The notes below the pieces were generated by a model that saw only the letters and a program-made list of their open reading frames with translations, had not been told where the DNA came from and made no database searches. From an uncultured Candidatus Saccharibacteria bacterium (GTDB taxonomy: Bacteria > Patescibacteriota > Minisyncoccia > Phycocordibacterales > Zambryskibacteraceae), in assembly GCA_964446535.1 (NCBI GenBank), contig CAYUOR010000003.1, forward strand, positions 14,871-78,870: a stretch of DNA of 64,000 bases, written 5' to 3'. Of this stretch, positions 54,026-64,000 are shown one piece after another. The translations under genes were made by a program, and so were the position numbers. How positions within the stretch are numbered: the first letter of the stretch is position 1; each line of letters starts with the position of its first letter.

Positions 54026-56035
54026 TTATCCTAGCATATTGATAAATTCTTTTTCGCTGACGATATTTATGCCGAGCTTTCTTGCCTGCTCAAATTTCTC
54101 ACCAGGATTCTCTCCTACCACAACATAATCGGTTTTCGGAGAAACAGCGCTTTTTATTTTGCCACCTAGGTTCCTTATTTTTTCCTTCGCCTCTTCACGC
54201 GACATACTTTCTAGCGTCCCTGTGATAACAAAGCTTTTACCCAGAAATCTTCCTTCTGATTTCGACTCTGGTACTACGCGCTTGATACGAACCTGTTTCA
54301 TCAGGCGCTCGTAGAGTTGTTTATTTTCTTTATCGGCAAACCAGCTCAGGATGGCGCGTGAGACAATCGGACCGACTCCGTCGAGTTTTTCAAGCTCTGT
54401 TTCCGAAGCTTTGGCGAAGTTTTCAGCCGTTTTGAAGTGTGTGGCCAAATCTCGCGCCGTCTCCTCTCCTACCTGTGGGATAGAGAGTCCGGCAATGAAT
54501 CTTGAGAATTCAACCGAGCGAGCTTTCTCGATCGCTTTAAGAAGATTATCTATAGACTTTTCGCCGAAGCGTTCTAGCGGCTTAAGGTCTCCGCGTTCAA
54601 TGGCGAAAATGTCGTCAAGATTAGAGATAATCTCGGCATCCATCAGTTGTTTAATAATTTGAGGACCCAAACCTTCTATATCGAAAACCTGCCTTGAAGC
54701 GAAGTGTTCAAGCTTTCTTCTCTGCTGTTCGTAGGAATTCTTGGCCACACAGCGATAAGCGGCTTGGCCGGGAACACGCTCAATGGAGCCGTCGCCGCCG
54801 CAGAGCGGAAATTTCTTAGGAAACTTAAAAATCTTTTCCTTACCGTTTCTTAATTCTTTTAAGGGACCGACCACCTCGGGTATGACGTCTCCGGCTTTTT
54901 GTATCACAACCGTATCCCCGACCCTGACATCTTTACGCTTGATTTCATCTTCGTTGTGGAGAGTAGCTCGCGAAACAACGGAACCCGCTACAAGCACGGG
55001 TTGAAGTATGGCCACGGGAGTAAGGACACCTGTTCGGCCGAGTTGGAGAGTGATGTCGAGAAGTTTTGTGGTTGTCTGCTCCGCGGGAAATTTAAACGCG
55101 ATACCAAAACGCGGAGACTTACCGGTGTAGCCCAAGAATTTCTGATCACGCCTAGAGTTAACTTTAACCACGATACCGTCAAGTAGATACTCCTCTTTTT
55201 CGGCTTTTTTCTGCCACTCTTTCCAGTACTCAATCACCTCTTCAACACCGCGAACCTTTCTAAAATGAGGGTTAACTTTAAAGCCAAGTGAGCCAAGAAA
55301 CTCAAGCTCTTCTTGCTGCGTAACGAGTTTGGACTCAATTTTTTCGTCCAGTTTCGCGATGTCGTAGATAAAAGAGTCGAGCCTTCTCTCGCGTGTAATC
55401 CTGGAATCAAGCTGCCTAATAGAGCCGGCAGCAATATTTCGCGGATTGGCGAAGAGCTCTTCTCCCCTCTTTTTCCTTTCGGCATTAAGTTTTTTAAAAA
55501 TAGTTTTGGGCATCCAAATCTCACCTTCAACAACAATATTTAAATTTTTTGGCAAATCTTTTGGAACCGACAGGATGGTCGAAACGTTCTGGGTTACATC
55601 CTCACCCACCCTGCCATCGCCACGAGTAGCAGCAGTAGCGAGTTTGCCGTTCTCATACGTTAGAACCACTTTAAGCCCATCAATTTTAAGCTCGGTAAGA
55701 TATTCAGGTTCGTGACCCAAAAGTCTTGTGACTCTCTCGTGAAAAGCTCTGAAATCACTCTCGTCGAAAGCGTCGTTAAAGGACCATTGCCTGACGGCGT
55801 GCTCCACCTTTTCGAATTTTTCCAAGACCTGACCGCCAACGCTCTCCGTCGGGGAACCCTCCTCGACAAGTTCTGGATATTTTTTCTCAAGCTCTTCGAG
55901 CTCTCGAACAAGCGCGTCAAAAGCCTGGTCCGATATCTCCGGACGATCCAGGGTGTGGTAGAGCCTGTTGTGGCGCCTGATGGAGGCGCGCAACTTTTTT
56001 GCTCTCTCTTCGATACTCTTGTCTGGCTTAGGCAT
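54026..56035 (-). CDS. ligA: NAD-dependent DNA ligase LigA
   Basis: KxDG adenylation motif (ELKIDGLKV), OB fold, Zn finger, HhH and BRCT domains, 669 aa. Confidence 0.95.
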
Positions 56036-56505
56036 CAGTACGTGGCTCTGACAGCGCGCTCCACGCGCCTTGGGTTTGTCAGATCACAGGTATTATAACC
56101 TTTTGACTCTATGGTAGTTCTAAGAACACCAAGAACATAAGCTTTGTTAACTGTAACTATGGCGCAGTAAGAATTTGGTAAAAAGTTTATGCGGTTTATG
56201 GTACTGAGACCGCTGACATTCCCGCCTACAACCCACTGGTTGCCGAGATTATTAGTATCGCGATTGCAATTAATTAAAGTGCCTGTCGTGGTAGAAAAGG
56301 CGCTCTGCCCTGTGGGATTTCTCACGTCCCAATAAAGAGCGCACTCTATACCAGAGTCTGCGGCATAAAAAGCGTGTTGGGAAGACTCGCTTGCGTTGGC
56401 AATCTGCAGGTGCCGGACGGCAAGACTCACGATACCCGCTGCCACAAATGTAATAGTGCCCACGATAATAACTGCGACAAAGATTGTAAAACCTTTATTT
56501 TTCAT
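56035..56505 (-). CDS. Pilin-like protein (atypical, KGFTIF N-terminus)
   Basis: [24 protein letters not shown] with a C-terminal Cys pair. Its stop overlaps the ligA start by 1 nt. Confidence 0.6.
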
Positions 56506-57050
56506 GGCCAGTTTAAAAGATTTTCTTGTGCTCTAAATTGTTTACTGGTCTGACCATGCACCCAGTCCACGGTAACGGTAACGGAAATTTCATTAGCATT
56601 AATTTGAGAGAGAATAATCTGACGCCTAAATTTGGTTGCATTCCAGGTTGGGTCATAGCCGTAGAAAAGATTGGTGCCGTCCTGGCGCAAGATCGGACAA
56701 GAGCCTGGTACGCCACACCTTATAGGTACTGCCGATAGAACCGGATCAACAGTGCAGACGTTTTGATTGGGGGCTATGCCGAAGTGACATGGGTCGTTGA
56801 CGTCCGCTGCAATACCGTAAAGCCAGTTGCGACCATTCAGCGCGTTTTCATCACGCATGTTTCTTATAAATTCAAACCCTTCTTGAGCGAGATAAAACGC
56901 AATTACCTGATCTCTGGAGAGCGTGTAGGAAGAGATGCCGGTTCTTATGGCGCTTGATATTCCGGTTATGGCAAGGATTAATATGGTAATAGCCACCAGA
57001 CTCTCGACGATGGTGAACCCGTTTTTACCCAGTTGTTTTTTGTAAATCAT
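56502..57050 (-). CDS. Minor pilin (prepilin-type N-terminus)
   Basis: NGFTIVESLVAITILILAITG. Confidence 0.7.
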   Translation of the reverse strand: MIYKKQLGKNGFTIVESLVAITILILAITGISSAIRTGISSYTLSRDQVIAFYLAQEGFEFIRNMRDENALNGRNWLYGIAADVNDPCHFGIAPNQNVCTVDPVLSAVPIRCGVPGSCPILRQDGTNLFYGYDPTWNATKFRRQIILSQINANEISVTVTVDWVHGQTSKQFRAQENLLNWP

Positions 57051-57051
57051 A

Positions 57052-62324: not shown

Positions 62325-62330
62325 TTTGTT

Positions 62331-62711
62331 TTAAATTTTTGCAATCTTTTTTATCTCGTCGACGACCTCGGTCGGAACACTTGTCGCCTTGACGATATAG
62401 CCTTTAATGCCGAGAGCTTTCGCCTTGTCTATCATCTCGCGGTTGTTTTCGTTCGTGAGCATGACGACCGTTGAGTCGGGTGCGAGCTTCTCTTTCCTGA
62501 TAACTCCGAGAAGTTCCACTCCGTCCATACCCGGCATGATGATGTCGAGGACGAGGACATCGGGCGTTGCTCCTCCGCGAAGCTTATTGAGTGCTTCCTC
62601 GGGTCCGAGAGCTATTTCGACTGTGGCGCCGTCGGACTCGAACTTTTTCTTATACATATCTAGGAGAAACTTGTCGTCATCTACCAGAAAAATTTTGTAA
62701 TTTTTACTCAT
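62331..62711 (-). CDS. CheY-like single-domain response regulator (receiver only)
   Basis: DDD...K receiver pattern (LVDDD, DVLVLDIIMPGMDG, KAT), 126 aa. Confidence 0.85.
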   Translation of the reverse strand: MSKNYKIFLVDDDKFLLDMYKKKFESDGATVEIALGPEEALNKLRGGATPDVLVLDIIMPGMDGVELLGVIRKEKLAPDSTVVMLTNENNREMIDKAKALGIKGYIVKATSVPTEVVDEIKKIAKI

Positions 62712-62718
62712 AGCTTTA

Positions 62719-64000
62719 TTATAGCGTATTTACTTCTTCAAATGGGATAACCCGTGCGAAGGCCTTGAGGATGGCATCTTCCTTCATAGAGACAAGACCC
62801 TTAGCGCGGATAACTTTGTAGAGCTCAATTTCGGAAGGGTCCTTGAGAATAACCGACTCTATATCCTTATCCATCTCAAAGACTTCCATAACGGCAACAC
62901 GCCCAGAGGTGCCGTTAAGGCAGTCGGGGGTGGGCATAATTTCGTAAACTTCGTTGCCGAATTTGAGCTGGCGTTTGTACTCCACGGGCAGGTCGTTGAA
63001 TTGTTTATCTATCATCATCTTGAGCGAGCCCTCTATCGGTTTCGGCTTGCCGCCGCCGGGACAGAGTTTCCTTACTAGGCGCTGAGCCATGGTGAGAACC
63101 AGGGTCGGCGCGATGAGATAGGGGTCAACACCCATGTCGATAAGACGCGGAATGGCACCCACGGCGTTATTGGTGTGCAACGTCGAGAAAACCAGGTGGC
63201 CGGTAAGAGCGGCCTGAATAGCAAGTTGCGCCGTCTCCTTGTCTCGAATCTCACCAACCATGATAACGTCAGGGTCCTGGCGCAGGGTCGTCCTTAGACC
63301 TGTGGCAAAGGTGTAGTCGATTTCCGGGTGAATCTGAGACTGTGAGACGCCGTCTATGGAATACTCAACAGGGTCTTCGAGCGAGAGGACGTTCTGGTGG
63401 TCCTTGTCCACTTCGTTTAGCATCGCGTAGAGCGTCGTTGACTTACCAGAGCCCGTAGGACCGGTGATAAGAACCAATCCGTAGGGGCGCTCCAGCGCTC
63501 TTCGAATGGTGGTAAGGTTTTTCTGCGAGAGTTCCAGGTCGTCGAGAGTTTTAACACCCTGAGACTGGTCAAGAATACGCATAACCACCTTCTCGCCGTA
63601 GTAAGTCGGAAAAGTTGAGACGCGGAAGTCAACCTTCCTCGACTCAATCGTCGCCGAGAAACGACCGTCTTGCGGTTTGCGCTTCTCGTCGAGACGCATG
63701 TTGGAGACAATTTTAATTCTTGCCACGACCGCCGAGTGAACTTTCAGGGGCAGGAGGAGAGAGGTGTTGAGTTCTCCGTCAACACGAAAACGAACACGGA
63801 CGTTGTCGCGCGTCGGCTCGATGTGAACGTCGGAGGCCTTGCCTTCGGAGGCGTAGTTTAAGATATTGGCAACAATTTTTGTAACAGGAGCGTCTTCGAC
63901 AATCTTGGTATCTATGGGTTCATCCTCTTTATCTTTTTCAAAAGTGACATCCTTCGGCGCTTTGGCGGCAAGTTCGGACTCGAGCTCCGAGAGAGCTTTT
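62719..64000 (-). CDS. pilB: Type IV pilus assembly ATPase PilB/GspE (5' end beyond window)
   Basis: Walker A GPTGSGKSTT. The N2-domain pattern STFPTYYGEKVVMRIL is present. The reading frame continues upstream of the track start (..SAVVARIKIV..) to the window edge with GspE N-terminal-like sequence. Confidence 0.9.
   Translation of the reverse strand, partial: KALSELESELAAKAPKDVTFEKDKEDEPIDTKIVEDAPVTKIVANILNYASEGKASDVHIEPTRDNVRVRFRVDGELNTSLLLPLKVHSAVVARIKIVSNMRLDEKRKPQDGRFSATIESRKVDFRVSTFPTYYGEKVVMRILDQSQGVKTLDDLELSQKNLTTIRRALERPYGLVLITGPTGSGKSTTLYAMLNEVDKDHQNVLSLEDPVEYSIDGVSQSQIHPEIDYTFATGLRTTLRQDPDVIMVGEIRDKETAQLAIQAALTGHLVFSTLHTNNAVGAIPRLIDMGVDPYLIAPTLVLTMAQRLVRKLCPGGGKPKPIEGSLKMMIDKQFNDLPVEYKRQLKFGNEVYEIMPTPDCLNGTSGRVAVMEVFEMDKDIESVILKDPSEIELYKVIRAKGLVSMKEDAILKAFARVIPFEEVNTL

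Follow-up and report, generated by a model that had tools for sequence, protein, structure and literature searches.

We analysed a 64,000-nucleotide (nt) stretch of contig CAYUOR010000003.1 from an uncultured Candidatus Saccharibacteria bacterium (the window), in which a series of type IV pilus (T4P) genes on the minus strand is followed by the DNA ligase gene ligA and by gatC and gatA (together gatCA; Table 1). Gene names were assigned with Pfam and NCBIfam profile searches of the window proteins. The initial annotation of this DNA had listed pilB, cheY, pilT, pilC, two pilA genes, pilD, four minor pilin genes, ligA, gatC and gatA; all are present in that order on one strand, their families hold in the profile searches, and the single CheY-like domain placed between pilB and pilT is borne out by a receiver-domain gene (REC). 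The interval given for the block, 56035-64000, covers the pilus genes only, with ligA, gatC and gatA occupying 52314-56035, and a fourth tightly linked gene, encoding a protein of 221 amino acids (aa), belongs to the ligA-gatCA end. The T4P operon had also been described as complete. We observed that the window edge removes about 105 residues from the N-terminus of PilB (426 codons remain, versus ~532 in the full-length gene of a relative, L005), and that the cluster begins outside the window, as genes of the PilN (25.3 bits, cutoff 22.8) and PilO (27 bits, cutoff 22) Pfam families lie directly 5' of pilB in L005. PilM was not seen 5' of pilB in that relative. An Rfam scan of positions 51000-64000 at E <= 1 returned only three boundary tRNAs, with no riboswitch or leader RNA in the cluster.

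Table 1. Genes and predicted signals of the T4P-ligA-gatCA block, with positions in the window.
Feature	Position	Strand	Details
pilB, type IV pilus assembly ATPase	62719..64000	-	5' end cut at window edge; 426 codons present
TATAAT box, predicted leaderless-type promoter of REC-pilT-pilC	62718..62723	-	6 nt before REC ATG; overlaps pilB stop
REC, stand-alone CheY-like receiver domain, 126 aa	62331..62711	-	Response_reg 1.3e-20
pilT, retraction ATPase	61257..62324	-	TIGR01420, 422.5 bits vs 319.1 cutoff
pilC, platform protein	60044..61252	-	T2SSF (PF00482), two stretches, 2.2e-55
Candidate leadered pilA1 promoter TTGCGA, 19 nt, TATAAT	60036..60066	-	Straddles pilC stop; weak evidence
pilA1, major-type pilin	59520..59972	-	Leader MSTRTKG, then FTLIE; mature pI (isoelectric point) 7.9; class III signal peptide
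pilA2, second major-type pilin	59033..59485	-	Leader MFGLTSKEKG, then FTLIE; mature pI 4.2; class III signal peptide
Extended -10 box TGaTATACT, predicted leaderless pilD promoter	59009..59017	-	6 nt before pilD ATG
Terminator-like hairpin after pilA2, predicted attenuator of pilA transcripts	58975..59007	-	-17.1 kcal/mol, z = -3.2
pilD, prepilin peptidase / N-methyltransferase	58229..59002	-	A24_N_bact 4.7e-28 (97.5 bits); Peptidase_A24 1.3e-10 (42.1 bits); both over cutoff
Weak TAAACT box at minor pilin 1 (mp1)	58257-58252	-	Position-specific box search
Minor pilin 1, GspH/FimU position	57610..58245	-	Leader ...VRG, then FTLPE; 17-nt overlap with pilD
Minor pilin 2	57052..57606	-	Pilin-like leader ...NKG, then FTLIE
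Minor pilin 3	56502..57050	-	Pilin-like leader ...KNG, then FTIVE
Minor pilin 4, PilX/GspK-like	56035..56505	-	Leader MKNKG, then FTIFV; PilX_N 6.4e-4, under cutoff; stop overlaps ligA start
ligA, full-length NAD-dependent DNA ligase, 669 aa	54026..56035	-	NF005932, 795.7 bits vs 369 cutoff
gatC	53726..54019	-	TIGR00135, 44.6 bits, just under 47.1 cutoff; position conserved in relatives
gatA	52314..53726	-	TIGR00132, 566.5 bits vs 481.1 cutoff; ATG at 53726 shares 1 nt with gatC stop
TAGAAT box of 221-aa gene	52311-52316	-	Overlaps gatA stop
221-aa protein gene with two transmembrane (TM) helices, last of block	51639..52304	-	Syntenic in 23 loci
tRNA-Met, convergent, 3' boundary of co-directional block	51545..51618	+	

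The stop codon of the last minor pilin gene and the start codon of ligA overlap by 1 nt, as had been proposed (TAC TGA TG, 56037-56033; the A is shared by TGA and ATG). The accompanying statement, that no gap between pilT and gatC exceeds 5 nt, does not hold for the pilA genes, which are bordered by gaps of 29-71 nt, or for the ligA-gatC junction, where the gap is 6 nt. The pilC-pilA1 spacer is 29 nt with a GTG start and 71 nt with the ATG at 59972, which yields a canonical leader of seven residues; the pilA1-pilA2 and pilA2-pilD spacers are 34 nt and 30 nt, respectively. At each of the eight junctions between pilD and the 221-aa gene, the neighbours overlap or are separated by 9 nt or less. 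Genes of one direction are generally packed tightly in the window, rpoB-rpoC-dnaG-rpoD as much as the pilus-ligA block; the adjacency of T4P genes and ligA, however, recurs in about 40 other genomes. The rpo/dnaG genes (37426-47141) form a mixed housekeeping run in which rpoB and rpoC overlap by 8 nt, rpoC and dnaG overlap apparently by 37 nt, and dnaG and rpoD are 17 nt apart.

Relatives were drawn from a ligA-based scan that yielded 72 loci, one genome per species, and synteny was measured by tblastn of all window proteins against these loci, counting the 62 with at least 1.5 kb upstream of ligA. The closest match was the 'Minisyncoccia' locus L017 (81% identity for LigA, 93% for PilB and PilT), followed by Zambryskibacteria and other Parcubacteria/Paceibacteria. 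We place the window itself in the Patescibacteria, as DNA of a Zambryskibacteria-like member of the Paceibacteria ('Minisyncoccia'). We observed two or more T4P genes upstream of ligA on the same strand, usually as the full series, at 39 of the 62 loci; L031 and L033 have one pilin gene each in this position, for a total of 39-41 loci. All of these loci belong to Patescibacteria metagenome-assembled genomes or mislabelled relatives, with LigA identities of 43-81%, and they span Zambryski-, Lloyd-, Kaiser-, Adler-, Specht-, Harrison-, Jackson-, Magasanik- and Doudnabacteria. No pilus genes were found upstream of ligA at any of 20 non-Patescibacteria loci. Downstream of ligA, gatA lies within 3 kb in 29 loci. 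The flanking sigma factor, rpsP, KH, trmD and rpoB genes are syntenic in the closest relatives only, and prfB lies within a few kb in several distant relatives. The last pilin-ligA junction measures 1-4 nt in the window and in L002, L004, L006, L008, L020, L036, L043 and L060, and 12-110 nt in most other loci; it is sometimes interrupted, by a gene for a 608-aa secreted protein in L048 and by an opposite-strand gene in L037. The initial annotation had suggested comparing synteny in relatives for absence of the linkage from any related genome; we found the linkage conserved, and the order T4P, ligA, gatCA is probably ancestral to a large part of the Patescibacteria.

Small endonuclease genes, which from the motif ...RKELRKNQT..ILDFYC... 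we take to be DUF559-like, lie between the last minor pilin gene and ligA in L010 (5320-5709) and L025 (9103-9471). They look like mobile insertions at the junction.

In relatives, no Shine-Dalgarno (SD) motif is present in the gap before ligA; the gap holds a TAnnnT box that resembles a -10 element and lies exactly 6 nt ahead of the ATG. The box reads TATAAT in L011, L015, L032 and L048, TACAAT in L028 and L029, and TATACT in L018, L019 and L068. With a box at this distance, transcription would begin at the A of the ATG, which is the signature of a leaderless gene; GeneMarkS-2 likewise takes a Pribnow box at 6-8 nt before the start codon as its leaderless criterion (PMC6028130). Among 62 window genes, TAnnnT occurred at the 6-nt spacer in 10, versus a background of 1.4% (p = 2e-8), at the 7-nt spacer in four, and at other spacers in 0-4, with a TGn extension in eight of the 14 boxes at 6 or 7 nt. 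Across 48 Patescibacteria loci, 90 of 710 genes had the box at the 6-nt spacer, versus ~26 at other spacers (p = 2e-24), and SD-like motifs preceded 5% of genes, versus 32% in 24 non-Patescibacteria loci. The TAnnnT spacer profile of those 24 loci was flat. Overall, the [TGn]TAnnnT signal stands 6 nt before the ATG of about 13-16% of genes in these genomes, and ~20% of window gene starts are boxed at 6-7 nt. From its position and frequency we judge the TAnnnT box to be a true start signal shared across the lineage; we infer that it acts as a promoter and that the resulting transcripts are leaderless.

The box was found before REC in 11 of 23 relatives, before pilD in 20 of 38, before ligA in 18 of 45 and before gatC in 24 of 30, and in four or fewer relatives each before pilT, pilC, the minor pilin genes and gatA. 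The pilD box is TG-TATACT in all close relatives. For ligA, a box is present in 17 of 22 loci with LigA identities of 50-59%, versus 0 of 15 in the window's clade (at least 63%, window included; Fisher p = 3e-6). The gatC box, TG-TAAAAT or TG-TAGGAT, is kept in most of the window's clade but is gone in the window, L017 and L020. In the window itself, boxes stand before REC, pilD, mp1 and the 221-aa gene, and neither ligA nor gatC is boxed. The mp1 box is unlikely to be a real promoter; it is matched in only two of 30 relatives and is probably a chance occurrence. Positions 50500-64000 were also scanned for generic sigma-70 promoters and intrinsic terminators, judged against shuffled expectation, under rules that do not admit the 19-nt spacer of the candidate pilA1 promoter.

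The window scan gave no terminator-like site between the pilin genes and ligA; L015 and L019 have a terminator there, besides a ligA box. After pilA2, and spanning the pilD start codon, lies a hairpin with a 10-bp stem, AAAGGAUGAC-UCUA-GUCAUCCUUU, followed by UUGUUUUAG (UUGUUUU). The same hairpin with different loops is present in eight close relatives (L001, L002, L004, L005, L007, L008, L017 and L020), and non-homologous sites consisting of a hairpin and a T-run lie at the pilA-pilD junction in L015, L016, L025, L028, L030, L034, L048 and L063. The hairpin may terminate or attenuate transcripts from the strongly expressed pilin genes, and transcripts begun at the pilD ATG, holding only half of the stem, would escape termination.

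The initial annotation had proposed that ligA and gatCA are co-transcribed with the pilus genes. For pilD and the minor pilin genes this proposal stands at the level of sequence, where the TGATG overlap, the lack of a ligA or gatC box, the lack of a terminator and the conserved linkage all argue for a shared transcript. Transcription of the whole run from pilB to gatA is improbable: the predicted boxes at REC and pilD, together with the hairpin after pilA2, suggest that the block is not one simple operon, and the stretch from pilD to gatA holds no strong internal signal. Because ligA and gatC are unboxed in the window, the nearest predicted promoter upstream is that of pilD, and the likely unit comprises pilD, the four minor pilin genes, ligA, gatC and gatA. 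We favour, with a probability of roughly 0.6, a derived operon fusion, in which promoter loss in a streamlined genome placed ligA-gatCA on the pilD/minor-pilin unit, over any DNA-uptake module. The ancestral units would have been REC-pilT-pilC, pilD with the minor pilin genes, ligA, and gatC-gatA, with a terminator or attenuator after the major pilin gene. Box loss is the presumed direction of change: the ligA box would have been lost in the window's lineage, and the gatC box as well in the window, L017 and L020, and the spacers between genes would have shrunk until the genes overlapped or stood no more than 9 nt apart. With the pilD promoter driving ligA-gatCA, their translation would follow that of the four minor pilins by termination-reinitiation. 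In a genome with few SD sites this is the route that internal cistrons must take, and it fits the junctions of 9 nt or less and the ATGA and TGATG overlaps. The fusion would be a by-product of genome streamlining, and would tie essential genes, expressed constitutively at a low level, to a pilus-biogenesis unit whose own level is low.

Several observations weigh against a fusion. All statements on promoters, terminators and co-transcription are drawn from the DNA sequence; the box statistics depend on gene starts chosen heuristically, as the first ATG or by homology; and the generic scan returned counts equal to the shuffled expectation, and was replaced by the position-specific analysis of -10 boxes. 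Constrained by the coding sequence that it overlaps, the hairpin stem is invariant among close relatives and offers no compensatory changes. In L015 and L019, T4P-ligA adjacency persists even though ligA is boxed and preceded by a terminator, so that 'frozen synteny' is assumed, not demonstrated. Finally, the check for a promoter upstream of ligA, as the initial annotation had advised, gave a divided answer: there is no leaderless box, but the coding sequence of the last pilin holds, 56 nt before the ligA ATG, a perfect TATAAT (56097-56092) with no -35 element. Of 13 close relatives, 11 conserve this hexamer as TAYAAT, but it encodes a conserved Gly-Tyr-Asn. It could be a leadered ligA promoter, in which case ligA-gatCA would be adjacent to the pilus genes but independent of them, expressed from an unrecognised promoter in the last minor pilin gene, and the overlap would reflect compaction only. 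Independence is also favoured by the risk to essential genes of depending on a pilus promoter, and by the predicted promoter that ligA has in most relatives. However, the TATAAT lacks a TGn extension as well as a -35 element and coincides with the conserved codons; the resulting leader would hold a GC-rich hairpin and no SD motif; no terminator lies upstream of the hexamer, so read-through from the pilin genes would occur anyway; and a TGATG overlap is typical of translational coupling. We consider an independent ligA promoter unlikely, if far from negligible.

The neighbourhood might instead be an 'uber-operon', comparable to the rpsU-dnaG-rpoD macromolecular-synthesis operon, in which selection keeps the dosage of an essential surface machine in step with that of genes for replication and translation. 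Consistent with selection, the adjacency outlasts most flanking synteny and survives insertions at the junction, and T4P-1 is essential in Saccharibacteria. In L043 (9553-11938), moreover, the pilus genes are 70-78% identical to those of the window, and ligA, whose product is only 57% identical and has a canonical four-cysteine (Cys4) zinc finger, still lies 1 nt behind the last pilin gene; this ligA may be an in-place replacement by a foreign copy. By contrast, the proximity of prfB in distant relatives points to generally slow rearrangement of the region, and the internal promoter pattern varies between lineages. We regard this explanation as distinctly unlikely.

The pilus proteins encoded upstream of ligA appear to form a monoderm-type, retractile type IVa pilus (T4aP) cluster. 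PilB matched TIGR02538 (2e-131) and TIGR02533 (1e-140), in both cases under the equivalog cutoff, the protein being divergent and truncated by the window edge; PilB and GspE were not separable by hidden Markov models (HMMs), and the assignment rests on context. The PilT translation contains AVANLIRE, near the AIRNLIRE of PilT. REC, which is present in most relatives, retains all phospho-acceptor residues as read from its sequence (acidic pocket DDD11-13, D56, T86 and K107), and a PDB sequence search returned generic CheY/receiver structures only, with no specific subfamily; it would plausibly bias pilus extension versus retraction. All six pilin-like proteins have a short basic leader ending in Gly, then Phe-Thr. 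The two major pilins have leaders of seven and 10 residues, N_methyl scores of 34.8-38.1 bits and Glu at position 5, a residue shared by every minor pilin but the last, which has Val. The minor pilins scored at or under HMM cutoffs (N_methyl 17-22 bits; PilX_N 20.1 bits versus 25.5). An 86-nt run of DNA over the N-terminal helix is identical between pilA1 and pilA2, and the globular parts diverge (pI 7.9 versus 4.2), which suggests recent duplication or gene conversion. The secretin PilQ was not found among the cluster genes or in the 39 syntenic loci, which fits a monoderm-type envelope. In the predicted system, PilD would mature the prepilins, PilB and PilC would assemble the filament with PilN and PilO (encoded outside the window), the four minor pilins would form a priming or tip complex, and PilT would retract the filament.

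LigA is an ordinary cytoplasmic NAD-dependent housekeeping ligase. It matches NF005932 over model positions 2-664 of 664, carries the adenylation lysine of KxDG at K117 (in ELKIDG), and has no signal peptide. Its zinc finger (residues ~406-445) retains two of the four canonical cysteines (FPLCGGDG...RCVAKNSY), a form also found in about 30 Paceibacteria relatives (L001-L029, L061, L067 and L068 listed). Cys4 is kept in all non-Patescibacteria LigA proteins and in the more distant Patescibacteria LigA proteins of the set, and L010 and L040 have none of the cysteines. No gatB follows gatA; it must lie elsewhere in the genome. The place where gatB would be expected is taken by the gene for the 221-aa membrane protein, in the window and in 23 Patescibacteria loci. 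This protein has a C-terminal helical domain with an R-x4-H motif (HKVRNTLAH) and a faint, sub-cutoff match to HEPN_Swt1 (E = 0.023), and a PDB sequence search gave no match.

The initial annotation had read the coupling of a retractile pilus to a DNA ligase as a sign of DNA uptake or competence. We found this role to be unsupported. A functional uptake module would import DNA through the retractile pilus and have a co-expressed ligase process or seal it, the linkage being selected for competence or nucleotide scavenging. Such a module would agree with the presence of PilT, with conservation of the linkage across about 40 genomes, and with the natural competence of Patescibacteria, which lack nucleotide synthesis. 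In addition, the second T4P locus of Nanosynbacter lyticus TM7x adjoins recA-recX, and a DNA-uptake role is suspected for its essential T4P-1; mutants of T4P-2, the non-essential pilus, nevertheless keep wild-type competence (PMC11623550). Features of the window also speak against a module: LigA is a canonical full-length cytoplasmic enzyme, the mature pilins are not notably basic, and gatCA, which has no DNA role, is linked just as tightly. Moreover, ligA has its own box in most relatives (17 of the 22 at 50-59% LigA identity), preceded in two by a terminator, and neither a scan of 30 larger open reading frames (ORFs) of the window nor the syntenic block showed a gene for ComEA, ComEC or DprA, a negative that does not extend to small ORFs or to other parts of the genome. 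Finally, a separate, PilT-less ComG-like cluster in the window is at least as good a candidate for uptake. On this evidence an uptake module is highly improbable. We give scarcely more credence to the broader proposition that the neighbourhood is a selected, clade-wide feature of Patescibacteria coupling pilus biogenesis, possibly with DNA or nucleotide acquisition, to the ligase, and that the 'essentiality' of pilus genes in screens partly reflects polarity on, or co-regulation with, ligA-gatCA.

The precedent that an uptake role would need is Lig E, a small, ATP-dependent, periplasmic or secreted ligase that belongs to the competence regulon of Haemophilus and Neisseria and is thus co-regulated with pilus-dependent uptake; the ligase of the window, by contrast, is a 669-aa NAD-dependent enzyme without a signal peptide. 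ComG pseudopilus operons of Bacillota, which encode type IV filament machinery linked to DNA uptake, resemble the window cluster in having an ATPase, a platform protein and several pilins, but they lack PilT, which the pilB-ligA cluster has.

A second type IV filament cluster, at 23137-30574 on the minus strand, has no PilT gene and is nearer to ComG or type II secretion systems (T2SS) in organisation. It encodes a short GspE/PilB-type ATPase of 405 aa (29357-30574), a platform protein of 371 aa (28240-29355) and five pilin-like proteins, among them proteins of ~510-570 aa and 672 aa with pilin-type N-termini and a GFTLIE pilin (23137-23706).

T4aP clusters of Gram-positive bacteria are self-contained operons of SD-led genes. 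Those of Clostridium and Streptococcus sanguinis resemble the window cluster in having PilT, short prepilin leaders and two major-pilin paralogues but no secretin; the window cluster differs in its predicted leaderless-type promoters, its receiver domain between pilB and pilT, and its appended housekeeping genes. Unrelated essential genes are also held in one conserved unit with internal promoters in the rpsU-dnaG-rpoD macromolecular-synthesis operon, whereas the window unites genes of a cell-surface machine with genes for replication and translation, at a junction that varies between lineages. Heteropolymeric pili of S. sanguinis are mentioned in PMC11623550, which also describes the nearest counterpart of the window system, T4P locus one of TM7x. 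This locus, which encodes the essential retractile 'thick' pilus, is likewise a patescibacterial monoderm-type T4aP cluster, with PilB, PilT, PilC, PilD, PilM/N/O and major and several minor pilins; as in the window, the same genome has a second, PilT-less pilus system, and one pilus locus stands beside DNA-metabolism genes (recA-recX in TM7x, ligA in the window). TM7x belongs to another Patescibacteria class and has another gene order, and neither a receiver-domain gene nor ligA-gatCA linkage is reported in PMC11623550. Of the two pili of cultivated Saccharibacteria, the one with PilT powers twitching and is essential, and the other aids host binding (PMC11623550).

We found no published description of the T4P-ligA-gatCA neighbourhood in the literature on the Candidate Phyla Radiation/Patescibacteria, and the conserved neighbourhood with its changing promoter pattern appears to be unreported. 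It is an observation on gene order, not a new mechanism; both the pilus system and the ligase belong to known families. T4P are the best-studied host-interaction machinery of Patescibacteria, and some pilus genes score as essential. If ligA-gatCA are indeed on the pilD/minor-pilin transcript, as a derived operon fusion predicts, insertions and deletions in pilus genes would be polar on ligA-gatCA, confounding essentiality calls. The case would then document operon fusion by promoter loss along a lineage. It also suggests a testable rule for uncultured genomes in which SD motifs are scarce, namely that TAnnnT 6 nt before an ATG marks a leaderless start and that junctions of 9 nt or less mark coupled cistrons.

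Two further ORFs of the window drew our attention. On the plus strand, a 434-aa ORF at 7895-9199 contains peptide deformylase and methionyl-tRNA formyltransferase domains and looks like a def-fmt fusion. Release factor 2 (RF2) is encoded by a short prfB ORF (48685-49642) that, read from its first ATG, gives ~292 aa and retains the SPF and GGQ motifs. The GTG start listed for this ORF is overlapped by a tRNA-Thr gene (49568-49642), so that the N-terminal domain of RF2 appears truncated.

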